Positions 1,767 to 48,674 of a DNA stretch of 64,000 bases are shown here, piece after piece; the stretch's first letter is position 1; every line of letters begins with the position of its first letter. The notes under the pieces are model-generated. The model saw only the letters and a program-made list of their open reading frames with translations. It did not search any database and had not been told where the DNA came from. The stretch is from Candidatus Omnitrophota bacterium (GTDB taxonomy: Bacteria > Omnitrophota > Gorgyraeia > Gygaellales > Profunditerraquicolaceae). Position numbers and translations under genes: made by a program. Where the stretch lies: NCBI GenBank assembly GCA_043813255.1, contig JBDRLG010000126.1, positions 2,882 to 66,881 on the forward strand. Reading direction: 5' to 3'.

Positions 1767-1779
1767 AGTAAATTGTATT

Positions 1780-2100: not shown

Positions 2101-2164
2101 TATAATTGTTTTGTATAAAGCTAATAATAATTCTAAATTTTTAGTTTGTCAAGGAAAATCCGCT

Positions 2165-17234: not shown

Positions 17235-18002
17235 CTATGGATGAAATTTTAATTCTTTAATTAGATCCTTAGGGTTAAAGAAATCTTTTATTTTTTCATA
17301 ATTATTTCTGTACAAATAAGAAATATCTAAAATAACTCTTTTCATCCTTCCTAGTAGTCCGTAATGACTTTTTCCATGCCTTCTTTTATTACAAGATATT
17401 TTTACTTCAGTAATAGAGATTTTTTTACCTCTCATTAATAAAGGAATAAACCGGTGTGATTCCCCATATAATTTAATATCTTTAATTAATTCCTGGCGGT
17501 AAGCCCTAAAGCTACAACAAATTTCATGGAGTTCAGTATTAAATAGTATATTAATTATTTTATTAGCAATTAATGAAGGTAATATTTTATTCAGGAAATT
17601 ATCTTCTCTATGATTTTTCCATCCATTTACCAGATCATAGCCATATTCAATTTTCTCTAGGAATTTAGGAATATCATAAGGATTGTGTTGGAGGTCTCCA
17701 TCCATAGTTATAACTATTTCGCCTTTTGAAAAATAAAAACCGGCAGATAAACTGGCAGTCTGCCCATATTTTTTTATTAATTTAATAATATTTAGATTTT
17801 TATCTTTTTTATGAATTTCACATAGATATTGGTAAGTCTTATCATTGCTCCCATCATCTATAAAAATTATTTCATAAGTTTTATTTATAGTATTCAAAAC
17901 CTCCTTTAATTGAGTATAGAGCAAGATTATATTGTCCTCTTCATTATTAACGGGAATTATTATGGATAGGTATTTTTCAGGAGGATAAACAAATTTATTC
18001 AT
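17235..18002 (-). CDS. GT2 polyprenyl-phosphate glycosyltransferase (GtrB/CsbB/ArnC-like)
   Basis: 255 aa. Contains YLSIIIPVNNEEDNI...IIFIDDGSNDKT...ITMDGDLQHNP. Confidence 0.8.
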   Translation of the reverse strand: MNKFVYPPEKYLSIIIPVNNEEDNIILLYTQLKEVLNTINKTYEIIFIDDGSNDKTYQYLCEIHKKDKNLNIIKLIKKYGQTASLSAGFYFSKGEIVITMDGDLQHNPYDIPKFLEKIEYGYDLVNGWKNHREDNFLNKILPSLIANKIINILFNTELHEICCSFRAYRQELIKDIKLYGESHRFIPLLMRGKKISITEVKISCNKRRHGKSHYGLLGRMKRVILDISYLYRNNYEKIKDFFNPKDLIKELKFHP

Positions 18003-18868
18003 AGATCTTTAAAGGCAATTAATTTTATATTTGATTTTTTAATTAATTCTTTTAACTCGGGGCTAATTAAGGCATTTAACTCTGCTTCTCTGGAATTATT
18101 TAAATAGTATTTTTCTGTATTCAACGGGTAATTATCCCATTCCTCATCAATATATCCGGGATGGCACATTATTTCAATAGTCCCATTTTTTAAATCTAGC
18201 AAGACTTTTTTAAATTCAGAAATTATCGCATTGCTATCAATCCGGGAAATTCCGTAGAAAAAATCCGTAGTTTTTAAATCGCATTTCTGAATAGATAATC
18301 TATTTTGTTTAGAAAATATATTAAGAAATAAATTATTGTAAAATTTGTTTGTGAAAATTCCTGAAGCCCCCAAGATATTACGATAAGGAATTTTATTAAT
18401 ATATCTTACCTTAGAAATGCCATATTCTTTGGCTATTTTAATCGTGGTGTCAAATATGGGTTTTATCAGGTGTAAGTGCTTTTCGCTATCGAGATGAGTG
18501 ATTGAGATATTTTTTTTTAGTAGTTTCTCTATCTGGGCCCTGCATTCCGATTCTAATTCTTTGAAGTCTAAATTTCCAGCATAAATGGAATAGAGAAAGA
18601 TAAAAATATTATTGAAAAAAGAACCTTTTTTCGTAAGGCTTTTTAATTTCAAAGCAGGTAAAATAGGGTTGCCTCTAAATATATTCAAATGAATTCCTAC
18701 TGGTAATTGGGGATTCTCAGTTATTAAATCCACGGCATTATCAAACCCTGGCATATTTGGTAATAATGAGGTATTAGTTAATATACCTTCTTTAAAGGCT
18801 TTTATTATGCCTTTATTTATACTTTTGCTTAAGCCAAAATCATCAGCATTAATTATAATTTTCCGCAT
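17999..18868 (-). CDS. YdjC/ChbG/HpnK-family carbohydrate deacetylase
   Basis: 289 aa. The N-terminal motif is IINADDFGLSKSINKGIIKAFKEGILT, with a His-rich centre THLDSEKHLHL. This family deacetylates (Glc)NAc-containing substrates. Confidence 0.85.
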   Translation of the reverse strand: MRKIIINADDFGLSKSINKGIIKAFKEGILTNTSLLPNMPGFDNAVDLITENPQLPVGIHLNIFRGNPILPALKLKSLTKKGSFFNNIFIFLYSIYAGNLDFKELESECRAQIEKLLKKNISITHLDSEKHLHLIKPIFDTTIKIAKEYGISKVRYINKIPYRNILGASGIFTNKFYNNLFLNIFSKQNRLSIQKCDLKTTDFFYGISRIDSNAIISEFKKVLLDLKNGTIEIMCHPGYIDEEWDNYPLNTEKYYLNNSREAELNALISPELKELIKKSNIKLIAFKDL

Positions 18869-18897
18869 TATATAAGATCGATTTTAATTTGATGCCC

Positions 18898-20316
18898 TTA
18901 AGTATCATTTTTATTTGAGAATAACCATCTTAAAGCCACTTTAATATACCTAAAAAATTCATTTTTCGATTTTGAATTTATGACTCTTTTTAATATGTAT
19001 GATGGCCTAAAGTAAAATTCTCTATAAAATCTTCCAGCTAATTTTTCTATTTCATTTTGCGTTAATGTTGTCCATGGGGTTGGAAGGCGTTTTTTATCCA
19101 GGTCTATTTTATTTAAAATATATTCTTTCCAATAATCAATACCTGTTGTTTTAATTAATAATTCATTTAAATCGGTATTGGGCTTAGCGATAGTACGACA
19201 TACCTGAATGAAATCCAGTTTCATTTTTTTAGCAAAGTTTATTGAATTTAAAATATCTTTTTTTGTCTCTTCCGGGCTGCCAATAATAAAAAATCCCAAT
19301 GTCTTTATTTTATATTTGTAAGTCAGGTTTATAATCAGGGGTATTTTTTTTGTATCAATGCCTTTATTAATTGTATCCAGTATCTTTGTAGAAGCAGATT
19401 CTATCCCATAGTAAATTTTTTTGCATCCTGCTTCAGAAGCTTTCTTTAAAATATCCTCATCTACAACGTCTATCCTTGACCTGCATGACCATTCAATTTT
19501 TATATTTCGTTTTAATATCCCTTCGCATATTTTTATACCCCGTAATTTGTTTATAAAAAATGTGGCATCAAAAAAATCGATTTCTCTTGCGTTGTATTTA
19601 GTATAGCATTCTTCTATTTCATCTAAGATATTTTCTACACTTCTTTCCCTGTAAGGAATTTTAGAAATAGCGCAAAATTTGCATTTATGAGGGCATCCGG
19701 TGCTGGTAAGCATAATAGTATAATTTTTACGTTGAGACGTAAAAGAATAATAAAGATGATTTGGTAAAAGATGCCTGGCTGGAAAAGGGTATTCATCAAA
19801 GTTGATCGTTTCTTCAGAAGGAGGATTTATTATAAGCGTATTTTTGTCTTTATAAATAACCCCTTTTATATCTTTAAGGCTGAGCTTATTTTCTATTGCG
19901 GATATTAATTTTGGTAATGATTGATTTGCTTCCCCTATAATGCCATAATCAAAACAAGAGTAGGATAAAGATTCCTTTGGATATAAATTGATATTAATCC
20001 CTCCTGTTATTATCTTGACGTCCATATTTGTTTTGAAAAAACCAGCCCATTCAACTACTCTATGAAACCAATAAGTATCAGCCCGAAAGCCAATAATATG
20101 CGGATTGAAATCTTTCAAGATGTTTAAAGTTTCTTCTTTGGTTAGTTTTAAAGCATTGGCATCTATTATAATTACCTTATGCCCCGCTTTTTCTAATATA
20201 GCCGCGACATATGCTAAAATTATAGGCGGGGCTAAACAGAATTCTTCATCTACTATTTTTAAATTTTCGGAGAACTTCCGGTGTTCAAATGGGCAGTGAA
20301 TTAAGGCTATTCGCAT
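18898..20316 (-). CDS. B12-binding domain radical SAM enzyme (class B rSAM, methyltransferase/rearrangement type)
   Basis: 472 aa. The N-terminal Rossmann-like B12-binding region (RIALIHCPF...VIIIDANALK) is followed by a radical-SAM core LTSTGCPHKCKFCA (Cx3Cx2C). Confidence 0.85.
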   Translation of the reverse strand: MRIALIHCPFEHRKFSENLKIVDEEFCLAPPIILAYVAAILEKAGHKVIIIDANALKLTKEETLNILKDFNPHIIGFRADTYWFHRVVEWAGFFKTNMDVKIITGGININLYPKESLSYSCFDYGIIGEANQSLPKLISAIENKLSLKDIKGVIYKDKNTLIINPPSEETINFDEYPFPARHLLPNHLYYSFTSQRKNYTIMLTSTGCPHKCKFCAISKIPYRERSVENILDEIEECYTKYNAREIDFFDATFFINKLRGIKICEGILKRNIKIEWSCRSRIDVVDEDILKKASEAGCKKIYYGIESASTKILDTINKGIDTKKIPLIINLTYKYKIKTLGFFIIGSPEETKKDILNSINFAKKMKLDFIQVCRTIAKPNTDLNELLIKTTGIDYWKEYILNKIDLDKKRLPTPWTTLTQNEIEKLAGRFYREFYFRPSYILKRVINSKSKNEFFRYIKVALRWLFSNKNDT

Positions 20317-20337: not shown

Positions 20338-21324
20338 TTAAAGAAGGTTGATTTTTATTATATTAAGGATAGTATCCAGGTTAAATTGAAATAAATAATT
20401 AAGTTCGATAAAAGATGCGCACCAGCATTCTTTGCAAGTAATATAATTTAATTTGTCAAAAGAATTTTTAAAACCAAGTTCTATAACATTAGGAACGTTC
20501 TTAGAAATTATAAAATTTCGGCCACAACCATACATATCTCCATTTGGTTGCAGCCGGCATATAATTAAGCTATTCACGCATTTGATTTTTGTAGGATTCG
20601 GCCAATTATAAAGATATTTTAATCCTGTAATAGAATTAACTATATAGTTATTCTTTTTTTTCTCTAAAATAAGATTATTAATTGTTCTTTTGTAGTCAGT
20701 TTCTTCAGAAATAACCGGATTCATTTCTAATCCTGCAAGTGTACGTAATCTCGCGGGTTGGAAACTAACAGGAATTTTAAACTCTTTTGCTTTATTTAAA
20801 ATAAATTCAATTTTATCAAGATTAAATTTAGATAAAACAGTATTAAACCTGAGTTTTAGTTTTTTCTTCTTAGCTATTTCTACGGCTTCCATTATATTAT
20901 TGTACGAGCCGTTTCCTCGTATAAAATCATGAATTTTCTCCGGCCCATCAAAACTTAAAGTTAATAGATCAAGTCCGGTTAGTTGGTTAATTTTTTCTTT
21001 TACGAGTGAACCGTTAGAATTTATGTCGATTACCACATTATTTTTTTTTGCATGTTCAATGATTGTTCCTATATCATCTCTTAAAAGGGGATTTCCTCCT
21101 GTGAGATGCAGTACCTGTGTACCCGACTGTTTCATCTCAGTTATTAAAGATAAAATTTTCTCTGTTTCCATTTCAGTCGTTTTCATTTTCCAGCTATCGC
21201 AATATAAACACCTTTGATTGCATCTATATGTCAGCAACCAGCTAACAATTACGGGAGATCTCTTCTTTAATAAATTTGCTTCTAATAGTTTAAATGCTAT
21301 TGATATTTTTTTAGTTGTTTTCAT
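20338..21324 (-). CDS. Radical SAM protein with SPASM/twitch domain (member of 4-paralog family)
   Basis: 328 aa. LLTYRCNQRCLYCDSW is followed by a C-terminal Cys cluster CVNSLIICRLQPNGDMYGC...CKECWC. It is paralogous to 24603, 42527 and 46017 (shared LTGGNPLLRDDIG / SFDGPE..HDFIRG blocks). Confidence 0.85.
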   Translation of the reverse strand: MKTTKKISIAFKLLEANLLKKRSPVIVSWLLTYRCNQRCLYCDSWKMKTTEMETEKILSLITEMKQSGTQVLHLTGGNPLLRDDIGTIIEHAKKNNVVIDINSNGSLVKEKINQLTGLDLLTLSFDGPEKIHDFIRGNGSYNNIMEAVEIAKKKKLKLRFNTVLSKFNLDKIEFILNKAKEFKIPVSFQPARLRTLAGLEMNPVISEETDYKRTINNLILEKKKNNYIVNSITGLKYLYNWPNPTKIKCVNSLIICRLQPNGDMYGCGRNFIISKNVPNVIELGFKNSFDKLNYITCKECWCASFIELNYLFQFNLDTILNIIKINLL

Positions 21325-23353
21325 TATTTTTTTTTATATATATAGCTAAATTAAGTATGTTTCTTTGATTTTCGCTAAGAGAATGCATCCTAAGGTAGTT
21401 ATTTTTTTTAATTCTATCAAGCTTTTTGAATTCTTTTAATTCAGTATTTTTAAAATGGAAATGTTCAGATGCGTATTTATAGTTAATTTTAGCGATATTA
21501 TTGAATTGTGATAAGGCTTGCTCAGGCATCCCTTTAATTAAATAAAGAGTTGCTAAATTTAGATGTGCGATAATGCAATTATGGTTAAGTTTTGTAGCGT
21601 CATTATAACTGCCAATAGCGGCAGATACATTGAAACCTTCGCCAAATCTTAAATAATCTTTATTATGTTCATAAAGATAGCCAAGAAAAAGATTTGAAAT
21701 ATATAAAAATATTTTGTCTTTAGTTAATCCAAGGGTTTTTTTAAGTTCTGCGATTGCTTTATTTTTAAAATCCATATTTGGATATTCAACTGCCAATTTG
21801 TTATAAAAAAAGGCGAGCAAAAAATGTTTCCAGTCATAATTATTGTTTAGATTATTAAGTCTTTGGATAATCCGAGGCACATAATTCTTGTCTATATTAT
21901 CTATTTCTAAAACATCTAAAATTTCTTTTATTTCTTTGTTTTGATTAAATGTTTTATATCTATTTAGGACTTCATCAGGGGCATCAAAACTAAAACAAGT
22001 AGTTAAAATATATAAAATATGAATTATTGTTTCATTTCTTTTTTCTTTTGTCAGATAATCTTCTATAGTATCAATATAGAACCCTTTTATGTCATAATCA
22101 GTGATACGCAGGATTGATTCTATCATCTGGATATCTAAAGTTTTTGGTGAATATACATATAAAGGCTCCATTTCAAAAAAATTTTCAGGTGTTATACCGT
22201 TTTCTATGGGTTTTATTTGATATAAGAATAAATATAACGCTAATTTCTCATTAAGGTTGATAAATTTTCTTTTAAAACTATTAATTATTTGTTTGAACTT
22301 AGCTATATTATTTAAATAATAACAGTCTGGAAATCCAAATTCTTTTATAGTGTTTCTAACAGTTGGCGATATTATAACTTGTATATCTTTTTGAGAATTT
22401 AATGTTTTCCAGTTTAATAATTTTCTTTTTTCTTTTTTTATGTCATTCTTTAACTTTTTACATATTTTAAGTAAATAATTGTCTTTGGCCTTTCGCGGTT
22501 TAGACGGCCATTTTAATCTACAGTTTCTTAAGCTGGATAAATATCGATAATATTGCTCAAAATTATACATTAAATTGTCTTTTCTTTCAATTAATAAATC
22601 TTTGTATTCAGCGCAGATAGATAGTGTTTTGAAACATCCATTATCTATATTTCGGATGTAGTTTATTAATTCAAAACTTTCGGCAAAATCAACAGGTATG
22701 TTTTTATTAATGTAGGCTTCCCAGAAACTACTATAATAATTCTCTTTATTTTTCGTGTTAAAGTCATTAATTAAGGTTTCATTTATATATTTAGATGAAA
22801 AAATATTATATTTATTAATACTAATAATCTTATCTTTGGTCAGCAAAAATTGGCTTGGGTCACATTCAAATATTTCTTCATCTGCAATCAGCCAATCAAT
22901 TATCTGCTGTTTTTGGATATAATTAATCTGTTTTTTGGAAAGGTTATTTATGCTAATAGTTGCTAAACTGTTCAGGGAAGGAATAAATTCTTGTATGATC
23001 CCTCTCTCTTTTTTTCCATTGACCGGTAACGTTATTTCATAGCATAAAGGCACTTTTTGTCCGCACAAGGATAACAGTTTGTATGTTTGGTCTAAGTTTG
23101 TATTTGATTTGCCGATTTTAAAGAACCACAATCTTTCATCTTCGCTCTTAAGTATGAATTTTGCGTTTTGTCCGCTCAGCATAGGTTGTTTATCAATTAA
23201 TGTGAAAGTCAATTTTTTAAATATTTTATCAGACAGGGATTTTTTTTCTAAAATTAAATTAATTGCTTCTTTTTCAAGCTGGGAATTGTCAATCCTATTA
23301 CAGCCAAAATTAGAAAACATAAGAATTAATATAAGTATTTGGATAATTTTCAT
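21311..23353 (-). CDS. Secreted/lipoprotein-like large hypothetical protein (possible atypical kinase-like N-domain, TPR-like C-terminus)
   Basis: 680 aa with a signal peptide ending ...FSNFGC. The segment GQNAKFILKSEDERLWFFKIGKS...IIQEFIP...IIDWLIADEEIF is reminiscent of protein-kinase-like folds (PI4K-II/CotH-type). This is a weak call by eye. Confidence 0.35.
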   Translation of the reverse strand: MKIIQILILILMFSNFGCNRIDNSQLEKEAINLILEKKSLSDKIFKKLTFTLIDKQPMLSGQNAKFILKSEDERLWFFKIGKSNTNLDQTYKLLSLCGQKVPLCYEITLPVNGKKERGIIQEFIPSLNSLATISINNLSKKQINYIQKQQIIDWLIADEEIFECDPSQFLLTKDKIISINKYNIFSSKYINETLINDFNTKNKENYYSSFWEAYINKNIPVDFAESFELINYIRNIDNGCFKTLSICAEYKDLLIERKDNLMYNFEQYYRYLSSLRNCRLKWPSKPRKAKDNYLLKICKKLKNDIKKEKRKLLNWKTLNSQKDIQVIISPTVRNTIKEFGFPDCYYLNNIAKFKQIINSFKRKFINLNEKLALYLFLYQIKPIENGITPENFFEMEPLYVYSPKTLDIQMIESILRITDYDIKGFYIDTIEDYLTKEKRNETIIHILYILTTCFSFDAPDEVLNRYKTFNQNKEIKEILDVLEIDNIDKNYVPRIIQRLNNLNNNYDWKHFLLAFFYNKLAVEYPNMDFKNKAIAELKKTLGLTKDKIFLYISNLFLGYLYEHNKDYLRFGEGFNVSAAIGSYNDATKLNHNCIIAHLNLATLYLIKGMPEQALSQFNNIAKINYKYASEHFHFKNTELKEFKKLDRIKKNNYLRMHSLSENQRNILNLAIYIKKNNENN

Positions 23354-23370: not shown

Positions 23371-24597
23371 TTACCTAAAATTATTCAGTATATCAGCTAT
23401 ATACTTAATTTCTTTAGGATTTAAATAAGAATGAATAGGAATTTGTATGCTGTTTTCATATATTTGTTCACAAATAGGATATCTAGAAATATCACCATAA
23501 AGAGCAGCTACATTTCTCATGACATATTTGCCAGTATCAATTCCATTCTGCAATAGATATTTAGATAATTTATTCCTATTTTCAGATAAAAGGATATAAA
23601 AATAATAAATTGATCCCGGAATGCTTTTTATTTCTGTGTCTAATATGTCTTTTTTTAGGTATTTTTGTAATATTTTGATATTTTTAATTCTGTTTATATT
23701 TGAATAATCCAGTGATTTTAGTCTTAATAAAGCTATTGCCGCTTGCAGATTAGTTAAAAGCCTGATTTCAGTTTTTTTGTTCGTTATTTTTTTAAATGTT
23801 TTATTAAATGATATTAATAACAAATCTCTGTCACTGAAAAAAGAATTAATTAATAAAATAGGATAAATGAATAAACTGAAAATAAATTTATTGGCAGTTA
23901 TTGCTATTAGCCAAGTAATAAGTATTTCTTTTAACAAAATATTTAAACTGATTGGCTTACAGGAAGATAGATCTTTTTTTATTTTTTTAGCCGAGATTTC
24001 ATTATTACAAGCTACGCATCCTCCTCCGTAACTATGAAAATGTTTGGTAGAATTAAAGCTGAAATAAGAAAAATGCCCTAAGGAACCTGCTTTCCGTTTA
24101 TTATTTAATACTGCTCCCGGCGCGTGAGCACAATCTTCAATCACATAAATACCATGTTTATTACAGAATTCTAATAATTCTTCAATATCACAGATACTGC
24201 CGAAAATATGAGTGATTATAATTGCCTTTGTATTTGTAGTTATTTTTTTCCTTATCTGGTTTATATCAATGTTAAAGTCTTCTTTTCTGATATCACAAAA
24301 AACAGGTTTGAGCCCTTCATTGATAATTGCCCAAGGCACGCTTTCGTCAGTATAAGCAGGCAGTATTATTTCACTGTCTTGAGGAAAATTTAAAGTTTTT
24401 AGAATGAGGCGTAATGCAGACCTTCCGGAAGAAACTGCAAATACGTATTTTGTGCCTAAATAATCTGCAAATTGCTGTTCAAATAAAGCTGCATTTTGTC
24501 CTTTTATCGCTTTACCTGATAAAATAGTCCAGATAACTTTTTGTATTTCTCCTGTTATAATACTAATTTTTCTACGGGGAATTGGGTATATAAGCAT
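23371..24597 (-). CDS. DegT/DnrJ/EryC1/StrS-family PLP-dependent sugar aminotransferase
   Basis: 408 aa. The N-terminal region reads GKAIKGQNAALFEQQFADYLGTKYVFAVSSGRSAL. The PLP-lysine context is GSLGHFSYFSFNSTKHF (SFxxxK). Confidence 0.75.
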   Translation of the reverse strand: MLIYPIPRRKISIITGEIQKVIWTILSGKAIKGQNAALFEQQFADYLGTKYVFAVSSGRSALRLILKTLNFPQDSEIILPAYTDESVPWAIINEGLKPVFCDIRKEDFNIDINQIRKKITTNTKAIIITHIFGSICDIEELLEFCNKHGIYVIEDCAHAPGAVLNNKRKAGSLGHFSYFSFNSTKHFHSYGGGCVACNNEISAKKIKKDLSSCKPISLNILLKEILITWLIAITANKFIFSLFIYPILLINSFFSDRDLLLISFNKTFKKITNKKTEIRLLTNLQAAIALLRLKSLDYSNINRIKNIKILQKYLKKDILDTEIKSIPGSIYYFYILLSENRNKLSKYLLQNGIDTGKYVMRNVAALYGDISRYPICEQIYENSIQIPIHSYLNPKEIKYIADILNNFR

Positions 24598-24602
24598 ATA
24601 TT

Positions 24603-25598
24603 TTATGTTCTTCTATAAATTTGTTTTAATGAATTAAATATAGAATCAAATTTAAAGCTGTAAAGAAAATTGAGCTCTATCTGAGCCGCGATCCAGCAAT
24701 TTAAACAGCTATAAGGTTCTAAACTTAAAAAAGCATTTTTGATTCCTTGATGAGAAATATTAATATCTTTTTTATTGGTCTCATCACCGCAACTTTTTAT
24801 AAATCCGTTATTTTCTATTCTGCAATAAATTTTTCCTGCGGCGCATGGTATTTTTGTCGGTTCTGGCCAGTTTAAAAAATGTTTTAAACAAAGTAAGGAA
24901 TTTCCTATGTATGGATGTTTATTTAATTTATAATTAATTAAAGATTGAATAATTTTTTGGTAATTATTTCTTTTATTTAATAATATTTGATTGGTTCTCC
25001 CGCTGCCACGGTTTAATATCCTCGCGGGTTGAAATACAGTAGCAATTTCAAGTTTTTTTGCCAGTTTTAAAATAAATTCTATAAAATCAAGATTAATTTC
25101 TGATAATACTGATGTGAATTTTATTTCCCATCCTTTGTTTTTTGCTATTTTTATTGCTTCCATAGTGTTTTTGTAAGCTCCTTTCCCTCTTATGCTGTCA
25201 TGAACATCGGGTGGGCCGTCTAATGAAAGGACAATCCTGTCTAAACCGGTTATTTGTTTTGCCCTGTCTGATAACAGATATCCACTGGTATTAATACTGA
25301 CATAAATATTCTTTTCTTTGCAATAATTTAGGATTATCCCTATATCATTTCTTAACATGGGTTCTCCGCCTGTAAAATTTATAATCTTTGTTCCCGCCTT
25401 TGTAAGCTGGTCTATAAAGGAGAGAACAGCTTTGGTGTCTAAATCCTTAGTAGGAACTTCATTTACTCCGCAGTAAAGGCAATTATAATTGCAATGATAT
25501 GTTATAGCCCAGCTGACAAAAAAGGGGATTCTTTTTTGTAATAATTTAGTTTTGATAAACAAGTCATATCCGGCTTTTAAAATATCAAATTTTTTCAT
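24603..25598 (-). CDS. Radical SAM protein with SPASM/twitch domain (paralog family)
   Basis: 331 aa. ITYHCNYNCLYCG is followed by the C-terminal Cys set CAAGKIYCRIENNGFIKSC...CLNC. It is directly adjacent to the DegT aminotransferase. Confidence 0.85.
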   Translation of the reverse strand: MKKFDILKAGYDLFIKTKLLQKRIPFFVSWAITYHCNYNCLYCGVNEVPTKDLDTKAVLSFIDQLTKAGTKIINFTGGEPMLRNDIGIILNYCKEKNIYVSINTSGYLLSDRAKQITGLDRIVLSLDGPPDVHDSIRGKGAYKNTMEAIKIAKNKGWEIKFTSVLSEINLDFIEFILKLAKKLEIATVFQPARILNRGSGRTNQILLNKRNNYQKIIQSLINYKLNKHPYIGNSLLCLKHFLNWPEPTKIPCAAGKIYCRIENNGFIKSCGDETNKKDINISHQGIKNAFLSLEPYSCLNCWIAAQIELNFLYSFKFDSIFNSLKQIYRRT

Positions 25599-25607
25599 TA
25601 ATGATAA

Positions 25608-27092
25608 CTATTGTTTTGTTTGTTCTGGAAGCATAGCTTCGCAAATGGTATTAGCAGCATTTAATGCTATTAAGTAATAGCCTTTGGCATTACAATGTCC
25701 ATCAGGAATAAAATATTCACTGTAATGGCCGTATTTTAAAGCATCCTTAAATATTATCAAATTATCTATGAATAGAATGTCGCTATATTCCGCGCACATT
25801 TTTTTAATCCCCTCTATATCTGAAAGAGGGTAAGACATTAATAGCAGGGGTATATGTTTATTGTTTGTAATTTTATAAATAATATCGATATTACTGCGAA
25901 GAACTTTATTATTTGTATTTTGGATTTTCTGGATTTCTTCAAAATATTGTTTAGCCTGAGGGTACCTGTTTTGTTTTTTATAACAATTAACTAACTGCAG
26001 GTACGCAAAATCATTTTCCGGATTTAATTTTATCACATCTTTATATAAATTTTCTGCTTTTACATATTGTTTTGTTTCCATATATATATCTGCCAATTCA
26101 ACCCATGCTTTTTCTGCTGAAGGAGTAGATTCTAAATATTTCTTATAGCATATTTCTGCTTCATTATATTTTTTTTGGCATTTGTAACATCTTCCCAGAT
26201 TTTTATAAATTGTAATAGATTTTGGATAAAACGCCAGTACTTTTTTATAATATTCTTCAGCCCGGGAATAATTTTTTAAAAATACATAACAATCTCCTGT
26301 CATGCTATAAGCTTTCTTGGCATAAATTAAATTCAGGTTTGTTGCAGCAGTATACATTTTTATAGCTTTTAAATATTCACTATGGTGCCTGTATAAATCT
26401 CCTAAATTCATATAATCATTGGCATCTTTTGGACCTTTTTTAGATATTATTTTCATGCCTGGTTCTTCTTTAGAAGTATTCTCTTTTATTGTATCAGTTT
26501 TATGGGGAATTAAAGTAATACTTGTTTTTTTTGTTTTTAATTCATCTGTTTCGGTTTTTTTGTTCACAAAATTTGTCCATAACCATTTCGCTAGTTTATA
26601 TATTCTCATTTTAAATAAATAAAACCGTATTTTATTTATCGAAAAATATTTAGAAGATAATGAAGTATATTCACTTGTATTTGCCCATTCGTATTCATGT
26701 TGTCTTAGTAATAGAATTATCATGTCCGGAGAATATTCTTTAATAGCATTAATTATTGAATTTGGCAGTTCTGGAGAAGAATAGCCTCCGGGAATCCCTT
26801 TATTAATAATTTTAAAACTTTTTCCCGGGTATTTTTTATTTAATATCTTTTCAAGCTGGCTGGGATAATCTTTGCCTATAGGAGCTCCTACTCCATATGT
26901 AAAAGAATCTCCCAGACATAATATGCGGTATGCAGAAGTATCGGAGACTTTATTTTTGTATGATTGTACTTGTAAAAGAATATAACCTATTGTTCGTAAT
27001 CCAAATTCCAAAATAAATAAACTTAGTATTAATCCGAATAGGAATAAAACTATTTTTTCTTTATTTGATGTAAAAACCTTCTTTTTAGCCAA
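25608..27092 (-). CDS. SGNH/GDSL hydrolase-fold protein with embedded TPR repeats, membrane-anchored
   Basis: 494 aa. The N-terminal TM anchor is followed by GDSL block I (ILCLGDSFTYGVG). Several TPR-like repeats are inserted in the middle (YMNLGDLYRHH..., YKNLGRCYKCQKKYNEAE...). The C-terminal DGHCNAKGY matches the catalytic DxxH block. Confidence 0.55.
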   Translation of the reverse strand: MAKKKVFTSNKEKIVLFLFGLILSLFILEFGLRTIGYILLQVQSYKNKVSDTSAYRILCLGDSFTYGVGAPIGKDYPSQLEKILNKKYPGKSFKIINKGIPGGYSSPELPNSIINAIKEYSPDMIILLLRQHEYEWANTSEYTSLSSKYFSINKIRFYLFKMRIYKLAKWLWTNFVNKKTETDELKTKKTSITLIPHKTDTIKENTSKEEPGMKIISKKGPKDANDYMNLGDLYRHHSEYLKAIKMYTAATNLNLIYAKKAYSMTGDCYVFLKNYSRAEEYYKKVLAFYPKSITIYKNLGRCYKCQKKYNEAEICYKKYLESTPSAEKAWVELADIYMETKQYVKAENLYKDVIKLNPENDFAYLQLVNCYKKQNRYPQAKQYFEEIQKIQNTNNKVLRSNIDIIYKITNNKHIPLLLMSYPLSDIEGIKKMCAEYSDILFIDNLIIFKDALKYGHYSEYFIPDGHCNAKGYYLIALNAANTICEAMLPEQTKQ

Positions 27093-29152
27093 AATATGCC
27101 TCCTAAGGAACAGATTAGAATTATAAGAGAGATCCCCGCGCCTAACTTAAAAGAAAAAGGCGAATAGATAAAATTAACAGTATATTGTCCGGGTTTATCT
27201 ATATAAACAGCCCTGAAAAAATAATTAGCACGGTAAATCTCGGTGCGTTTATCGTTTATATAAGCTTTCCAGCCGGGATAATGTGTGTCTGAAAGTACTA
27301 AGAATCCTTTAGAATTAGTTTTTAAACTGATTGATACTTTGCCGGGCTGGTATTTAGTGATATACGTATCAGATTTTAATTCAAGGGAAATATCTACCGG
27401 ATTTAATCCGGTGATTTTTTTCTCTAATATAACCGTCTTTTTAAGGTCAAAAGCTTTATCTTTTAAAGTATCCAATATTTGCTGTTTATCTTTTATAAAC
27501 ATGGCTTGATTAACAAAGAATACTCTCTGTAAGCTGTTTTTAAATTGGTAGCATGCAATTATATTGTCTTCGTATATTTTTTCAAATAAAGGACTGTTTT
27601 CATAATAATTTTCTATTTCTGGAAGTATTTTTTTATTTTCTTCATCTTCCTCTTCTGGCTTATTTAATATCACATATTTAGTGCCGCTGGCTTTTAAGTA
27701 ATTAGGGTATAAAAGGAAATTATAATACGCCTCTTCTTTAATTAAGGATATATTCAGGTTTGTTTTAGTAAATTCAAGATAACGTAAAAGTATTAAATTG
27801 CTTTGTCCGCTTGAGAAATAAGATTTCCCTTTGATAAAATATGTGTACTCAGAGTTTAGAAAAATTCGGCTCCTATCTTTAATTTCTAGTTTATCTAGTA
27901 ATTTATTGACACTTAAGTAAATTTGAAGGTCATTATTATTGTTATATGAATCCTTATATTTCTCTGAATAATTTTTTTGCCATGACAAAGAGATTGAAAA
28001 CAAAACCAATGTCAATAAAATTAATTTTATTATTTTAAACTTTATTTTTTCAATTCCGAATCCGGATAGTAGCGCTATAGAAAAAATAAAAATGTAGCTG
28101 GCGCGGATAGGCTTTTTAAAAAAAGAGAAAAAAGGCAGGTTTAAATACAGATAATTTGTTATAAAGTTCCGGCTGCTTAAAACAAGAAAAAGAATTGTGA
28201 TACATAAGTAGAAGTAATAATATTTAGGCTTATGCTTATTGAATAACGGAAAAAATGCCAGTAAAACCGCTGTTAAGCCGATAAATATATCCGGTTTATC
28301 GGTATTTAAAAAAATTATGGCCTTTAGGTATTCTATATTTAAATAATTAGAGTTATACATTAAATTATAATCTTTAATATAATATCTGGCTGAATTTTGG
28401 GCTAATTCCATTGTAGGTAAAAACTGGATTGAAAATATCCCTATGGAAATCAATATGATGAGAATAAAGGCAAAAAGTAGATTCCTTATAGTATAAAAAT
28501 TCTTAGTATCTTTCATGATAAAAAAAGATTTTAAAATAAAATAAGCTGTAAATAACAGAAAAAAATAATAAGAATATTGAATCCCGCCGCCTAATAATTG
28601 CATGCCATAAAAAATTCCTGTTAAGATTGCATATTTCCAGTTGATTAGTTTATTTAATGCTTTATTAAGAAAGAATAAAATCAAAGGAAACCAAATATAA
28701 GTATTAAGTATATTTGGTTCATATAGTCTGATCATCGCGAATATTATGCCTGCCGTCAAAGCGCCGGTTATTTTTATATTAATACTGCGGGCATATATAT
28801 ACATAAAGAATCCCGCAGTTAAGAAATAAAAGATATACATAAAATTGCTTACGGCAATATTTGACAGCGGAGTGTAGAACGGTATATAGATTCTTAAAAG
28901 AGTAAACGGAGATAATAAATTATAATAGTCCATATCGGCGAATAAAGGGCACCCGCAGGAAAAATAAGGGTTCCATAAAAAATATGCGGATTTTATAAAG
29001 GAAGAAACTATGTGGGAATGTACAAAAAAAACATCTGCCGGAAGATTATCAGCAAAATATTTAGCTTTGAATATAATATCTTTGAATAAAAAAATAGATA
29101 CCGCTATAAAAAGCAAAAAAATCAGAAGTTTTTTGAAGTATTTATAAAGCAT
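27050..29152 (-). CDS. YfhO-family GT-C membrane glycosyltransferase (paralog 1 of 3 in tandem array)
   Basis: 700 aa with about 13 TM helices. The C-terminal periplasmic domain carries LVLSDTHYPGWKAYINDKRTEIYRANYFFRAVYI, the YfhO C-terminal signature. That terminus is nearly identical at DNA level to 33107-33700. Confidence 0.7.
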   Translation of the reverse strand: MLYKYFKKLLIFLLFIAVSIFLFKDIIFKAKYFADNLPADVFFVHSHIVSSFIKSAYFLWNPYFSCGCPLFADMDYYNLLSPFTLLRIYIPFYTPLSNIAVSNFMYIFYFLTAGFFMYIYARSINIKITGALTAGIIFAMIRLYEPNILNTYIWFPLILFFLNKALNKLINWKYAILTGIFYGMQLLGGGIQYSYYFFLLFTAYFILKSFFIMKDTKNFYTIRNLLFAFILIILISIGIFSIQFLPTMELAQNSARYYIKDYNLMYNSNYLNIEYLKAIIFLNTDKPDIFIGLTAVLLAFFPLFNKHKPKYYYFYLCITILFLVLSSRNFITNYLYLNLPFFSFFKKPIRASYIFIFSIALLSGFGIEKIKFKIIKLILLTLVLFSISLSWQKNYSEKYKDSYNNNNDLQIYLSVNKLLDKLEIKDRSRIFLNSEYTYFIKGKSYFSSGQSNLILLRYLEFTKTNLNISLIKEEAYYNFLLYPNYLKASGTKYVILNKPEEEDEENKKILPEIENYYENSPLFEKIYEDNIIACYQFKNSLQRVFFVNQAMFIKDKQQILDTLKDKAFDLKKTVILEKKITGLNPVDISLELKSDTYITKYQPGKVSISLKTNSKGFLVLSDTHYPGWKAYINDKRTEIYRANYFFRAVYIDKPGQYTVNFIYSPFSFKLGAGISLIILICSLGGIFWLKRRFLHQIKKK

Positions 29153-40906: not shown

Positions 40907-40914
40907 ATAATTCC

Positions 40915-43507: not shown

Positions 43508-44579
43508 TTTTTATTACCTCAAAAATTCCATCCGCAATTATTTGATTTTGTTTTTCTCCTACATGGCAATAATCTATAAAATAAGTTCCTGATTTATTAT
43601 CAAAAAGATGAGAAAGATTATGGAATTTTGGCCTGTTTAATCTGTCTGCCAAGGTGTATGTATAAAAATAAATTCTTTCTAATTCTTTATTTTTAAAAGC
43701 AAGTGCTGTTATTTCTTCATTTGTTTTTGGATTGACCATGAAAAGCACGGGCTGCCAAAAGAAACTGTATTTAAAACCATATGCTTGAGACAGCCTTTCA
43801 ATTAAATCCATATTTTTTTTATAATCTTTTATGATTTGATACGCTAGATTTTCCAAAGCAGTTTCATCATACATATTGTTCTTTTTAAAAACGTTATTCA
43901 AATAGGAAAATAAATAAATAAATTTGGAATTAGTTAAAAGTGCCTCTTCGCTCAGTTTATTAAATATTCTGGGTTCTAATCCCAGTTTCATTTTCCATCT
44001 GTTATAATTATAGATAAGCCCTGCTTCCCTGTTTTGTAATGCTGCCAGTACATCATTAACCCCGTCGTAAAAAATTACATAATCGGGGATGTTGCCTTTT
44101 TTTAACTGAGTAATTAAAAGAATGATTTCTTGAGTTAGGACATAGCCGGCTTCTCCAAAGTTAGTCACAGAATACGACTCTGTGTTTTTATTTATATTTT
44201 TTGAAAGCAAAGAAGCTATGGTAAAGTTATCTCTTACGCCTGTACCCCAAACAGTAGATCCGCCAAAAATAAAAACTTTATTTAATTTTTTTGTATCTTT
44301 AGGGTTCCAGGTCTTTCTTATGCCCTCATCTGATATATTAATAAATTTACCCGCATAACCCTGTCTTCTCCATTCATAGAAAGGATAATAATTTTTTTTA
44401 AGTTGATCGAATTCCATAAAATACTGTTTTGCCCAAGGGGAATCTTTGTAGATAGATGATTCGTAGCGTTTATTTTTATTCCAAGAATAAACATCTTTTA
44501 TAAAAAAATAAAATCTGGCGCTTAATTCAAGCCCCGCTAATAAAATAATAAAAAATATTATTTTTAGTATTAATTTCAT
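43491..44579 (-). CDS. SGNH-hydrolase-fold protein, membrane-anchored
   Basis: 362 aa with an N-terminal TM helix. Block I is VFIFGGSTVWGTG (a putative Ser nucleophile in GGST), block III is VIFYDGVNDV, and block V is IDYCHVGE (DxxH). Confidence 0.5.
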   Translation of the reverse strand: MKLILKIIFFIILLAGLELSARFYFFIKDVYSWNKNKRYESSIYKDSPWAKQYFMEFDQLKKNYYPFYEWRRQGYAGKFINISDEGIRKTWNPKDTKKLNKVFIFGGSTVWGTGVRDNFTIASLLSKNINKNTESYSVTNFGEAGYVLTQEIILLITQLKKGNIPDYVIFYDGVNDVLAALQNREAGLIYNYNRWKMKLGLEPRIFNKLSEEALLTNSKFIYLFSYLNNVFKKNNMYDETALENLAYQIIKDYKKNMDLIERLSQAYGFKYSFFWQPVLFMVNPKTNEEITALAFKNKELERIYFYTYTLADRLNRPKFHNLSHLFDNKSGTYFIDYCHVGEKQNQIIADGIFEVIKNELKN

Positions 44580-46015
44580 TTTAAATTTTGTTTTCTAAAC
44601 ATGGAAATTAATAATTTTGTTCCATTCCAATAAAAATTCATCAGTTTTAAAAAATAATTATTCTTGATAGATTTAATAATAAATGACGGGTTTAAATAAA
44701 ATTTAATATAAGCTTTTTTAATTAAAAATTTTAAATCTTGAGAACTTAAATCCGGTGTATTTAGTACCGGATTTTCGGGAAGAAATGTCCAGTTTGACCA
44801 GTTTTGATGATGCGGGATATATCCTTTTTCTAATGATAATCTATAAAACTCTGTTCCTACTAATGGAAGAGCTATGTAAAAATCAGCGGCAGTGGGTTTA
44901 ATTACATTTAGAAATCTTAAAGTCTCTTTGAAAGTTTGTTTAGTTTCTCCCGGGTAGCCTATAATAACACATGCCGTTGCGGCTATCCCTATTTTGTGCG
45001 TTAATCTGAAGGCCTCTTTAATTTGAGCCAGAGTAAATTGTTTATTCATGGCATTTAAAATTTGTTGAGACCCTGATTCTACTCCAAAGCGTAATAAGCG
45101 GAATTTCGCTTTTTTTAGTTTTTTTAATATGGGTTCATCAACAGAATCGACCCGCAGCATGCAGGTAAGATTAAGATTGTAATCTCTTTCTATTAAGCCA
45201 TCCAGTATTTTAAATAGCCGGGGTTTATTGGCTAATAAGCAGCTGTCGCTTATCTCAATGCATTTTATATTGTGTTTTTTGACTAATAAATCAATTTCAC
45301 TTAATATATACTCCGCGCTTTTAAAATAAATACAATTACCCCAAACACTTCTTATTCCGCAAAAAGTACAATTATAACGGCATCCTCTGGATGTAAATAA
45401 ATTTGTATACGGGCTCAACTCAATTTCTTCGTAAGACCAAAAATGATGTAATTTGATTCCGTATTTGTTCATTGGTAAAAGGTGATAAGCTGGAAAAGGC
45501 AATTTATCCAGATTTGTTATTCTTTCTCTTACTGGATTAAATTTCATATGTCCGTTATCTCTATAAACAAGCCCTTTTACTTTAGAAATATCTTTATTAT
45601 TTTGCAATGTTTCTAAGAGTTCAAATAATGTTATTTCTCCTTCTCCGATTATCCCAAAATCAATGACTTTGTATCCAGCCATAGTTTCTAATGGCAGAGC
45701 GGAAAAATGAGGCCCTCCCATAATACTTATGCATTTAGGGTTTATTGCTTTTGCTATTTTTAGGATATCTATTGTTTGAAGGAAGGTAGGAGTCAATGAA
45801 CTAACTGCAATTGCGTCAAAATCTTTAGGAAGATATTTATGTAAATCTTCCAAGAGAATATTATCAACTGCTGGATCAAATATTTGGACTTCAAACCCTT
45901 TATCTAATAAAAAAGCAGCTAATCCCGCCAGATTTACTGGAGGCGTTTTTCCAAATGATTTACTAATCTTCGAGTATAGATAATGATGAGGTATACCGAC
46001 AAAAAGAATTTTCAT
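44576..46015 (-). CDS. B12-binding domain radical SAM enzyme (second copy)
   Basis: 479 aa. The N-terminal B12-binding Rossmann-like domain is followed by the rSAM core FTSRGCRYNCTFCG. It is paralogous to 18898-20316. Confidence 0.85.
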   Translation of the reverse strand: MKILFVGIPHHYLYSKISKSFGKTPPVNLAGLAAFLLDKGFEVQIFDPAVDNILLEDLHKYLPKDFDAIAVSSLTPTFLQTIDILKIAKAINPKCISIMGGPHFSALPLETMAGYKVIDFGIIGEGEITLFELLETLQNNKDISKVKGLVYRDNGHMKFNPVRERITNLDKLPFPAYHLLPMNKYGIKLHHFWSYEEIELSPYTNLFTSRGCRYNCTFCGIRSVWGNCIYFKSAEYILSEIDLLVKKHNIKCIEISDSCLLANKPRLFKILDGLIERDYNLNLTCMLRVDSVDEPILKKLKKAKFRLLRFGVESGSQQILNAMNKQFTLAQIKEAFRLTHKIGIAATACVIIGYPGETKQTFKETLRFLNVIKPTAADFYIALPLVGTEFYRLSLEKGYIPHHQNWSNWTFLPENPVLNTPDLSSQDLKFLIKKAYIKFYLNPSFIIKSIKNNYFLKLMNFYWNGTKLLISMFRKQNLK

Positions 46016-46016
46016 T

Positions 46017-47033
46017 TTAAAGTAATATTTTTCTTATTAAATGTAAAATATCCAGCTTAAAAGCCATTAAATAATTTAATTCTATTGTGCCGCAAAATCC
46101 ACAACCGCTACATGGCGGCAAATCAGGTAGATTATTAAATGCCTCTTTGAAGCCAACCTCTGCGCAATTGGGAATTTTAGTATCATATTTAAGGCGGTCA
46201 CAAGGAGAAATTTCTCCATTTGCTGCAATCATGCAAAATATCTTGCCTCCCCAGCATTTTAATTTTTCATATTGAGGCCAGTTATATATATGATGAAGGC
46301 CGCGTAAAGAATTCCTTAATAGAAAATTATTTTGTTTTTTATAGGAGATAAGCTTATTTATTGTTTGTTTAAAAAGAGATTCCAAAGGTTCTATCGAATC
46401 TAATTTTCCTGTCGTATTCTTGTACTCTATTTCTTTTAAAGGTTGAAAAGCTACAATGGTATTAAACTTTTTTGCAATAGCGAGAATATCATCAATATAT
46501 TTAATATTAAATTTAGTTAAAGTAGTAGTAAAAATAAAAAATATTTTATTAGTTTGTGCGCATGAAGCAGCATTTATTGCCCAATTATAGCTTTCTTTTT
46601 TTCCTCTTACTAATTCATTAATATCTGCAGGGCCATCTAAACTTATTTTGAGTAAATCCAAAGCTTTTAGTTCTTTTGCTTTTTTTTCAAAAAGATAACC
46701 GGTGGAATTCATCTCGGGAGAAATCCCTAATCTTTTGCAATAGGTTATAATATCTCCTATATCTTCTCTTAGTAAAGGTTCTCCTCCGCTAAAGGAAATT
46801 TTTTTAGTTCCACACCTTTTGATTTCTTCTAAAAGTTTAAAAATTATTTTTGTTGGAAGCTCTTTTTCACTGGGTGATTTCCAGATTTTACAATACTCGC
46901 ATTTAGAAGGGCATTTTTCCGTAAGCTGCCAGCGTATTGCCAAAGGGGTCCTTTTATTAAAAAGTTTAACTTTAAAAATTATATTTAAAGCTTCTAATTG
47001 TTTTTTGTAATTTAATCTTGTTTTTTTTCTCAT
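46017..47033 (-). CDS. Radical SAM protein with SPASM/twitch domain (paralog family, divergent cluster motif)
   Basis: 338 aa. The cluster motif here is LTEKCPSKCEYCKIW (Cx3Cx2C). The C-terminal Cys set is CWGGKIFCMIAANGEISPC...CSGCGFC. Confidence 0.8.
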   Translation of the reverse strand: MRKKTRLNYKKQLEALNIIFKVKLFNKRTPLAIRWQLTEKCPSKCEYCKIWKSPSEKELPTKIIFKLLEEIKRCGTKKISFSGGEPLLREDIGDIITYCKRLGISPEMNSTGYLFEKKAKELKALDLLKISLDGPADINELVRGKKESYNWAINAASCAQTNKIFFIFTTTLTKFNIKYIDDILAIAKKFNTIVAFQPLKEIEYKNTTGKLDSIEPLESLFKQTINKLISYKKQNNFLLRNSLRGLHHIYNWPQYEKLKCWGGKIFCMIAANGEISPCDRLKYDTKIPNCAEVGFKEAFNNLPDLPPCSGCGFCGTIELNYLMAFKLDILHLIRKILL

Positions 47034-48672: not shown

Positions 48673-48674
48673 TA

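Follow-up and report, generated by a model that had tools for sequence, protein, structure and literature searches.

A linked twitch radical-SAM enzyme and DegT-family aminotransferase in an Omnitrophota glycan-tailoring locus as a candidate NAD-independent module for amino sugar formation

Only a few antibiotic pathways are known to pair a radical-SAM (rSAM) enzyme with a DegT-family aminotransferase, i.e. BtrN/BtrS, DesI/DesII and BlsE. BlsE reportedly acts as a radical 1,2-diol dehydratase on a glucuronic-acid nucleoside, and in blasticidin biosynthesis a PLP-dependent step follows BlsE. In the desosamine pathway the aminotransferase DesI acts first and the rSAM deaminase DesII, a protein of about 490 aa, acts second. 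The twitch domain is a truncated SPASM fold with one auxiliary cluster, its cysteines being placed before and after a β-hairpin and after a helix, and the auxiliary cluster of BtrN is fully ligated with a proposed role in electron transfer (PMC6231123). A full SPASM domain has two auxiliary clusters and seven cysteines in the arrangement CX9-15GX4C-gap-CX2CX5CX3C-gap-C (PMC6231123).

Here we describe an rSAM/DegT pair from a Candidatus Omnitrophota bacterium (GCA_043813255.1, contig JBDRLG010000126.1, positions 2,882 to 66,881, forward strand), the whole 64-kb stretch being referred to as the window. The preliminary description of this DNA had placed an rSAM gene for about 330 aa next to a DegT gene, in the same direction and separated by 5 bp. 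We recovered both ORFs at exactly these coordinates, both on the minus strand with the rSAM gene upstream of the DegT gene and with five bases (AATAT) between the rSAM stop codon TAA and the DegT start codon ATG. The features of the pair are as follows:

24603..25598, minus strand: twitch-type rSAM gene (331 aa) of a large uncharacterised family
25470..25493, minus strand: CNYNCLYC (residues 36-43), CX3CX2C site for the SAM-binding [4Fe-4S] cluster, from translation and invariance
24696..24845, minus strand: twitch region (residues 252-301), four cysteines predicted to hold one auxiliary Fe-S cluster
23371..24597, minus strand: gene for a DegT/DnrJ/EryC1/StrS-family PLP sugar aminotransferase (408 aa) of an insertion-bearing clade
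24043..24045, minus strand: codon of K185, the PLP Schiff-base lysine, from translation and an invariant alignment column
23758..23970, minus strand: insertion specific to this clade, about 70 aa long (residues 210-280), from alignment, PDB matches, hydropathy and model

Gene anatomy, conserved motifs, folds, conserved linkage and fusions were established and are presented below. A 680-aa ORF downstream of the DegT gene (21311-23353) was considered as a conserved third partner and rejected, having neither a homolog in related loci nor a Pfam or PDB match. Scanning for promoters and terminators revealed no enrichment over shuffles, and a literature search found nothing on these loci.

The rSAM matches Pfam Radical_SAM (PF04055; E 7.9e-25, 88 bits with a cut-off of 29.5) and belongs to the radical SAM superfamily with CX3CX2C and GGEP located within a partial TIM-barrel core, C36/C40/C43 and G77-G-E-P80 being invariant in a 51-sequence family alignment. 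The reduced SPASM-like cysteine set noted in the preliminary description was borne out as CX12GX4C...CX2C, i.e. C252-X12-G265-X4-C270 ... C298-X2-C301. These four cysteines and G265 are kept in at least 90% of the sequences of the family alignment and also in the paralogs, so the set is real and under selection; C236 and C259 fall below this conservation in the 51-sequence alignment and the paralogs. In the AlphaFold2 model (pLDDT 92.6; six core strands), in which residues 258-268 form a β-hairpin and residues 281-291 helices, C252 precedes the hairpin, C270 directly follows it and C298 and C301 lie past the following helix, the same topology that defines twitch in BtrN and SkfB (PMC6231123). 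Conserved cysteines and model fold together place the enzyme in the twitch subclass and predict an auxiliary site for a single Fe-S cluster. We rejected a full SPASM domain since the motif is incomplete, comprising CX12GX4C and one CX2C only without the CX5CX3C block, and Pfam SPASM (PF13186) gave no match in the rSAM.

The family is very large: its cluster representatives number 5,522 at E<=1e-30, and at least 150 at the stricter E<=1e-95. Profile searches of the PDB returned SkfB (104 bits), CteB (92), PqqE (84), MoaA (80) and anSME (76) as best matches, with the alignment to SkfB covering its residues 104-395, i.e. the part past the SkfB recognition domain. The Foldseek list is headed by SuiB and SkfB, a single-sequence search of the PDB matches best to viperins, enzymes acting on nucleotides, and the closest fold is that of BlsE with a sequence identity of only 15%. 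Within the SPASM/twitch group, similarity gives no reading of function (PMC6231123). The rSAM core begins at about residue 25 and a RiPP-recognition element is absent.

The partner matches Pfam PF01041 with an E-value of 1.3e-67 and is assigned to the DegT/DnrJ/EryC1/StrS family by this match together with its PLP Schiff-base lysine and the aspartate binding the pyridine nitrogen, K185, D155 and S180 being invariant in the DegT alignments. The clade-specific insertion is predicted to form three helices (218-234, 237-254 and 259-273), has no counterpart in the generic DegT sequences aligned and is left out of the alignment to every PDB match, which covers about 338 of the 408 residues, so that it matches no solved structure. 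It is strongly hydrophobic in the Omnitrophota members and only weakly so in L023, L088, L012 and L065, for which reason reading it as a membrane anchor is only speculative. The preliminary description had compared the pair specifically to BtrN/BtrS, an analogy with which both the missing RiPP-recognition element and the presence of the PLP lysine K185 agree. The specific likeness found no support: BtrR/BtrS is only the 17th-best structural match of the DegT protein and scores 109 bits by sequence versus 166 bits for nucleotide-sugar aminotransferases, so neither ranking supports the glutamine:2-deoxy-scyllo-inosose aminotransferase BtrR as its closest relative, and we found no specific sequence or structural relatedness of the rSAM to BtrN. 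Compared to DesI, the DegT protein scores far under the 650-bit cut-off.

Adjacency of rSAM and DegT genes is also present in the Omnitrophota loci L001, L002, L009 and L010. In an unrelated high-GC proteobacterium (L023) the DegT stop overlaps the rSAM start, the rSAM reaching 235 bits to the family HMM and having the 24603 gene as its best match in the window, and the same overlap is found in another unrelated bacterium (L088). An apparent DegT-rSAM fusion in L023 was discarded: high-GC DNA yields long stop-to-stop frames, which gave rise to this artefact, and the genes are separate and overlap at ATGA. Full-length fusions do exist in both domain orders on several independent contigs, i.e. 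rSAM-DegT on at least three contigs (P0276/P0389; rSAM 1-322, DegT 336-728) and DegT-rSAM on at least five (P0285/P0390/P0391; DegT 5-401, rSAM 410-731). As both enzymes are fused into one protein in other genomes, it is well supported that they act as a functional pair, in agreement with the preliminary description. With three to six paralogs per locus some rSAM-DegT adjacency is expected by chance; its recurrence in relatives and its fixation as fusion elsewhere argue for more than chance.

In a neighbour-joining tree lacking bootstrap values, the DegT-adjacent rSAMs from the various loci do not form one clade, and a single dedicated DegT-partner rSAM subfamily finds no support in this tree. 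Insertion-bearing DegT genes reside beside a B12-type rSAM in L007, L012, L022 and L094, beside a distant SPASM-type rSAM in L093, where an SDR is located directly upstream of DegT, and without a nearby rSAM in L011, L014, L024 and CPR peptidoglycan operons. The inspected loci with the insertion-bearing DegT and without the twitch rSAM show other rSAM classes, no oxidoreductase or a peptidoglycan operon. With regard to a possible non-orthologous displacement of an NAD dehydrogenase, L093 is the only inspected locus in which an SDR adjoins DegT. Further fusions comprise a B12-rSAM joined to a member of this rSAM family (P0356) and SPASM-type rSAM domains joined to GT2/GT1 domains (L092).

The pair lies within a glycan-tailoring locus of very large size on the minus strand, in which rSAM and B12-rSAM genes abound, with four members of this rSAM family in the window compared to six in L002. 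The paralogs, the B12-rSAM genes and the GT2 and YdjC genes are:

20338..21324, minus strand: rSAM paralog (328 aa) with 41% identity to the 24603 gene, family HMM score 422 bits
42527..43507, minus strand: rSAM paralog (326 aa), 393 bits to the family HMM
46017..47033, minus strand: rSAM paralog (338 aa), 350 bits to the family HMM
18898..20316, minus strand: B12-binding radical-SAM enzyme from this tailoring locus, with HpnJ as best family match (below cut-off)
44576..46015, minus strand: second B12-binding radical-SAM enzyme
17235-18002, minus strand: ArnC-like GT2 of the polyprenyl-phosphate sugar synthase type, best match ArnC (131 bits), below cut-off
17999-18868, minus strand: YdjC-family deacetylase

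The GT2 and YdjC genes (17235..18868), which are fused in L005, are likely the entry point for lipid-linked sugar donors. Other genes of the locus encode an AsnB-type amidotransferase, a carbamoyltransferase, Wzm/Wzt, a WecA-like protein and about nine GT-C-like membrane proteins (YfhO, PMT_2 and unnamed families). Among all ORFs of 100 aa or more in the 64-kb window we found no NAD-type sugar oxidoreductase or dehydratase (SDR, GFO or other), and the DegT enzyme therefore needs another source of its keto substrate. An amine-oxidase-family flavin oxidoreductase recurs in these loci, being 35 kb away from the pair in this window; as it recurs and its start overlaps the DegT gene end in L009, it could be the oxidant instead.

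Our data are compatible with a model, to which we give an about even chance, according to which the rSAM generates a keto sugar without NAD, either by oxidation or by dehydration, and DegT aminates it, all within the glycan-tailoring locus. The pair would thus form a dedicated two-step module installing an amino group on a cell-envelope glycan sugar without NAD(P). What the substrate is, where on it the attack occurs, whether the rSAM oxidises or dehydrates and which enzyme acts first are all inferred. The sequence from hydroxyl via ketone to amine suggested in the preliminary description is one among at least three conceivable orders or mechanisms. In the first step, SAM would be reductively cleaved at the CX3CX2C cluster and the resulting 5'-deoxyadenosyl radical would take the hydrogen from a sugar carbinol carbon to give an α-hydroxyalkyl radical. 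This radical might lose one electron via the twitch auxiliary cluster in a dehydrogenation as for BtrN/anSME, or it might expel the neighbouring hydroxyl group in a 1,2-diol dehydration as for BlsE/viperin/AprD4, a keto sugar being the product of either route. In the second step, DegT with PLP bound to K185 would transaminate the ketone to the amine, as suggested by its family. The tailored amino sugar would most likely be loaded onto a polyprenyl-phosphate carrier, its attachment taking place outside the cytoplasm, given the gene content of the locus with its rSAMs, GT2, YdjC, GT-C and Wzm/Wzt. A keto-forming role of the rSAM is favoured by the twitch cysteine set, the viperin matches and the lack of an NAD-type oxidoreductase in the window; the predicted four-cysteine site is consistent with a SAM-dependent two-electron oxidation that turns a secondary alcohol into a ketone, and offers nothing beyond this consistency. 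A sugar is favoured over a peptide as substrate by the absence of a RiPP-recognition element, by the glycosyltransferase-rich locus and by the rSAM-GT2/GT1 fusions in L092.

DesI/DesII and the real substrate of BtrN offer a parallel to the opposite order, in which DegT would make the amino sugar first, from a ketone supplied by another enzyme, and the rSAM would then act on it. The rSAM step would in this case be a radical deamination, oxidation or rearrangement of the amino sugar. We regard this order as quite unlikely, as the window has no NAD-type oxidoreductase for the initial ketone, the flavoprotein is 35 kb distant and the conserved four-cysteine site points to the removal of an electron from the substrate radical, which suits a dehydrogenation; DesII is not known to have such an auxiliary-cluster domain. 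Both enzymes might also act on one and the same scaffold without the rSAM forming a carbonyl, the rSAM then being one of several paralogous radical tailoring enzymes, e.g. an epimerase with a cysteine as H donor, a C-C bond former or a ring contractor, and DegT being fed by another enzyme. Since the window holds four paralogs and L002 six, more than one reaction must be catalysed within the family, the DegT-adjacent members are scattered in the tree, a fifth cysteine on the hairpin (C259), present in most members, could donate a hydrogen atom, and the P0356 fusion shows the family also coupling to other radical enzymes. Twitch rSAM sugar epimerases such as NeoN exist (PMC10991966). A non-carbonyl role nevertheless appears unlikely to us, since no other ketone-forming enzyme is located near the pair and two independent DegT fusions exist in both orders, arguing for consecutive steps or for the hand-over of an unstable intermediate, e.g. 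a keto sugar.

Two further readings concern the substrate class. Weak NCBIfam matches to HpnH (69 bits, rSAM), HpnJ (173-191, B12-rSAMs) and HpnK (155, YdjC), as well as the gene order GT2-YdjC-B12-rSAM paralleling the HpnI/K/J functions (PMC12324291), would fit a hopanoid-like side-chain pathway in which an HpnH-type rSAM is followed by an aminotransferase beside HpnI/K/J-like genes, and we consider such a lipid substrate very improbable. That the rSAM is a peptide (RiPP) maturase, its position beside DegT being functionally meaningless, is hardly credible: the sactipeptide enzyme SkfB is the best PDB profile-sequence match and, with SuiB, tops the Foldseek matches, but the missing RiPP-recognition element and the glycan-gene neighbours led us to reject it. 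A more far-reaching reading, unlikely when its parts are taken jointly, is that the pair edits sugars already bound to the polyprenyl-phosphate carrier at the membrane, that the hydrophobic three-helix insertion of DegT is a monotopic membrane anchor or a lipid-binding lid, that the rSAM family, the B12-rSAMs and GT2-YdjC form one radical tailoring line, and that amino, deoxy, C-methyl or cyclitol units result, which are attached by the many GT-C enzymes to the envelope of anaerobic Omnitrophota. To our knowledge, no lipid-linked sugar has been described as the substrate of a DegT or twitch rSAM enzyme.

The present case concerns a different, very large and uncharacterised twitch-rSAM family, which fusion and linkage connect to a distinct DegT clade. 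It is found in envelope glycan loci that contain B12-rSAMs and up to six rSAM paralogs and lack an NAD-type sugar oxidoreductase. If the model holds true, strictly anaerobic uncultivated bacteria make surface amino sugars by radical chemistry, and other modified surface sugars are probably made this way too. The natural fusions provide a ready single-polypeptide target for in vitro work.

Comparison with known systems shows the butirosin 2-deoxystreptamine pathway likewise combining a twitch rSAM, whose auxiliary [4Fe-4S] site has four cysteines, with a DegT-family aminotransferase (BtrN/BtrS (BtrR)), and the cysteine topology of BtrN equals that of the rSAM described here, the hairpin being preceded by one cysteine and followed by another, with two more past the helix. 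By analogy, NAD-independent keto formation followed by transamination would be the shared logic. BlsE belongs to secondary metabolism in the blasticidin S pathway, unlike our pair with its envelope-glycan setting. SkfB, PqqE, anSME and MoaA share the core and the C-terminal hairpin/helix cluster domain with the rSAM, which differs from this group in having no RiPP-recognition element, no peptide context and one auxiliary site instead of two. The Arn pathway (ArnA/B/C/D/T) offers parallels in DegT (ArnB), GT2 (ArnC), a lipid-linked-sugar deacylase (YdjC here, ArnD there) and GT-C transferases, an analogy rather than membership because all family scores are below the cut-offs. In place of an ArnA-type NAD dehydrogenase, which is missing here, it is an rSAM that adjoins the aminotransferase.

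The preliminary description had placed a radical-SAM enzyme (rSAM) next to a DegT/DnrJ/EryC1/StrS aminotransferase (DegT) in the same direction with a 5-bp gap, and we find both reading frames and the spacer being exactly as claimed:

24603-25598, minus strand: rSAM, 331 aa, ending with the stop codon TAA
23371-24597, minus strand: DegT, 408 aa, its ATG 5 bases beyond the rSAM TAA
21311-23353, minus strand: 680-aa ORF directly downstream of DegT, with a single hydrophobic segment near the N-terminus and a C-terminus faintly resembling TPR

Both genes belong to a near-gapless minus-strand gene run from ~62.5 kb down to 14.8 kb of the AT-rich window (G+C ~29%), whose sequence matches a contig of a Candidatus Omnitrophota metagenome-assembled genome without difference (P0001 and P0121 at 100%). 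The 680-aa ORF has neither a Pfam or PDB match nor a homolog in any related locus.

The Radical_SAM core is the only Pfam match in rSAM (E 7.9e-25), with no match to the SPASM domain, and ~70 weak NCBIfam matches, including heme b synthase, mycofactocin maturase, MoaA, PqqE, HpnH and viperin, all fall far below cut-off. The first homology search returned ~53 full-length relatives, followed by a steep fall to generic SPASM proteins. Aligned with one another, these relatives share C36, C40, C43 and G77-G-E-P80 without exception, and C252, G265, C270, C298 and C301 are conserved to at least 90%, bearing out the proposed reduced SPASM-like cysteine set. The C-terminal pattern CX12GX4C...CX2C covers the front half of the SPASM motif as published, with the CX2CX5CX3C block missing; this fits the definition of a twitch domain (PMC6231123). 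The confident AlphaFold2 model (pLDDT 92.6) shows six core strands, a hairpin (258-268) and helices (281-291), so that C252 precedes the hairpin, C270 lies just after it and C298/C301 follow past the helix; C259 within the hairpin is found in most family members, not all. One family member of 30% identity, P0049 (L004 10001-10975), keeps CX3CX2C and has all four twitch cysteines replaced (S, S, Y, T), judged from its sequence a natural variant without auxiliary cluster; no DegT is nearby in this locus.

DegT matches PF01041 (Pfam, E 1.3e-67) in two separate stretches. The PLP lysine, on which the preliminary description had made the BtrN/BtrS analogy depend, is present and invariant in the alignment (K185), as are D155 and S180. 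Only ~338 of 408 residues align in every PDB match, and an insertion at residues 210-280, predicted as three helices (218-234, 237-254, 259-273), has no counterpart in any solved structure matched. Alignment with other DegT sequences shows this insertion being clade-defining; its hydropathy is strong in Omnitrophota members and only mild in some other lineages. In candidate-phyla-radiation and some 'gammaproteobacterial' MAGs, insertion-bearing DegT resides in a conserved peptidoglycan-type operon (L079 4996-15249; also L016, L017, L056, L078 and L090) comprising MurA, GlmU, an alpha/beta hydrolase, a Mur ligase and DegT in its first part, and CvpA/CAP, a metallo-beta-lactamase fold protein, FemAB and MraY in the remainder.

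Evidence for a link between both enzymes comes from an exhaustive profile search, which yielded 5,522 family representatives at E<=1e-30, at least 150 at E<=1e-95, with multidomain rSAM-DegT proteins among the top matches:

P0276/P0389 (734/735 aa): rSAM at 1-322, DegT clade domain at 336-728
P0285/P0390/P0391 (737 aa): DegT at 5-401, rSAM at 410-731

All fused domains are full length (372-475 bits). Several contigs, assembled from different samples, carry these fusions, which excludes an assembly artefact. That both domain orders exist is a classic sign of steps being consecutive or tightly coupled. Separate genes also cluster in Omnitrophota loci: rSAM followed by DegT (L001), one DegT amid six family paralogs (L002), B12-binding radical-SAM enzyme (B12-rSAM), rSAM, DegT and flavoprotein (L009), and three rSAMs behind DegT (L010); in L092 and L094 family rSAMs lie 1.5-4 kb from DegT. 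Running the DegT-clade profile over GTDB species genomes added two linked cases from independent lineages. In L023, a high-GC proteobacterial contig, a 416-aa DegT terminates within the start codon (ATG) of an rSAM belonging to the family (235 bits), and among the window genes this rSAM matches 24603-25598 best. L088 has, in this order, a B12-type rSAM, DegT and an overlapping twitch/SPASM rSAM. Taken together, rSAM and DegT are very probably functionally coupled.

As a caveat, the loci carry 3-6 rSAM paralogs each, so that some adjacency to DegT is expected by chance, and a simple neighbour-joining tree places the DegT-adjacent rSAMs in more than one clade. Insertion-bearing DegT also adjoins B12-type rSAMs in L007, L012, L022 and L094 and distant SPASM types in L093, has no rSAM nearby in L011, L014 and L024, and in candidate-phyla-radiation bacteria resides in the peptidoglycan-type operon described above. 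A chance pairing, or a peptide-modifying (RiPP) role, is extremely improbable. rSAM has no N-terminal extension, and its profile alignment covers SkfB residues 104-395, beginning beyond the peptide-recognition element of SkfB.

The gene content points to sugars. Among window ORFs >=100 aa (64 kb) we found no SDR, GFO or other NAD-type sugar dehydrogenase/dehydratase, so the keto substrate of DegT must have an unconventional source. Further window features are:

15628-17232, 27050-29152, 31017-35269, 37084-42534 and 47512-50339, minus strand: about nine multi-pass membrane proteins, probably GT-C-type transferases
43491-44579, minus strand: 362-aa ORF that overlaps the genes on either side, an rSAM paralog and a B12-rSAM
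59105-60409, minus strand: flavin oxidoreductase (amine-oxidase family), PRK07208-like, with a weak UDP-galactopyranose mutase match
876-2668, minus strand, window edge: periplasmic binding protein (Peripla_BP_2) and corrinoid adenosyltransferase (BtuR/CobO)

The window contains four family paralogs (24603, 20338, 42527, 46017), two more distant rSAMs (13788, plus strand, with SPASM domain; 62558) and two B12-rSAMs with HpnJ as best match, below cut-off. It also encodes an ArnC-like GT2, a YdjC deacetylase, an AsnB-type amidotransferase, a NodU-like carbamoyltransferase, a GDSL/TPR protein, a flippase-like protein, Wzm/Wzt, a WecA-like transferase and several GT1/GT2 genes. The membrane proteins form paralog groups (534/539 aa; 628/653 aa; 700/704/720 aa, YfhO-like; two PMT_2), two of them without Pfam family and recurring beside rSAM/DegT genes in L001, L002, L009, L092 and L094. 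Peripla_BP_2 proteins serve B12 or siderophore uptake, and together with BtuR/CobO this fits cobalamin supply to the B12-rSAMs. The 362-aa ORF has no Pfam/NCBIfam match and no homolog in other loci examined.

At 17235-20316 (minus strand) ArnC-like GT2, YdjC deacetylase and one B12-rSAM follow the logic of hopanoid HpnI/HpnK/HpnJ, i.e. GlcNAc addition, deacetylation and ring contraction to a cyclitol; by analogy, the run may form a cyclitol or C-methyl sugar on a lipid carrier. In L005 (1-1198) GT2 and YdjC form one fusion protein of 503 aa, with three B12-rSAMs behind it. In L092, GT2 domains and GT1/GT28 domains are each fused with SPASM-type rSAM domains, which connects radical enzymes in such loci with sugars. 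Further fusions (P0356; L092 1-4366) are a B12-rSAM joined with a twitch rSAM of the family (P0356, 831 aa), a 922-aa rSAM-GT2-rSAM protein and a 1234-aa GT28/GT1-rSAM protein; these loci thus have radical enzymes physically linked to one another and to glycosyltransferases. A lipid as the substrate of the pair is very unlikely. Our literature search found no published description of such loci, which should appeal to radical-SAM and glycobiology specialists mainly because the family is large, fusions exist and the loci are unusual.

Motifs and folds are established, as are linkage, fusions and gene context. For the chemistry we infer a model, to which we give about even weight, according to which rSAM forms a keto sugar that DegT aminates. 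rSAM would abstract a carbinol hydrogen from the sugar, and the substrate radical would either be oxidised through the four-cysteine cluster, as in BtrN/anSME, or lose the neighbouring hydroxyl, as in BlsE/viperin/AprD4; DegT would then aminate the ketone via PLP on K185. Coupling without keto formation, rSAM being for example an epimerase, is unlikely, and the reverse order, DesI/DesII-like, less likely still; a small share of probability goes to no particular reading. Authors in the field caution that similarity within the SPASM/twitch group does not reveal function (PMC6231123). A flavin oxidoreductase recurs in L009 (8236-9591, its start overlapping the DegT gene end), L001 (3214-4650) and L002 (14242-15597) and could be an alternative oxidant or act on the amine.

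The pairing was initially likened to BtrN/BtrS of butirosin biosynthesis, i.e. oxidation followed by transamination. This reading is borne out in part: both the pairing and its NAD-independent logic are plausible and well founded, but the likeness lies in proposed function and cluster topology, not in family. Against PDB sequences the family profile scores best with SkfB (104 bits), CteB (92), PqqE (84) and MoaA (80), followed by anSME and BlsE (76 each), whereas BtrN reaches 30 bits, in the core only. Foldseek ranks SuiB, SkfB, BlsE, PqqE, viperin and anSME on top with similar scores throughout, BtrN being absent from the best 50 matches. BtrN, in which the auxiliary cluster is fully ligated, is described with the same cysteine arrangement as modelled for rSAM, so rSAM is BtrN-like by cluster-site topology and not by descent. 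BlsE, a sugar enzyme, has since reportedly been recognised as a radical 1,2-diol dehydratase, by which the nearest solved relative of rSAM would also yield a keto sugar. Acting on cytosylglucuronic acid and containing ~6.8 Fe and 8.5 S per monomer when reconstituted (PMC3715490), BlsE is a closer structural precedent for rSAM than BtrN.
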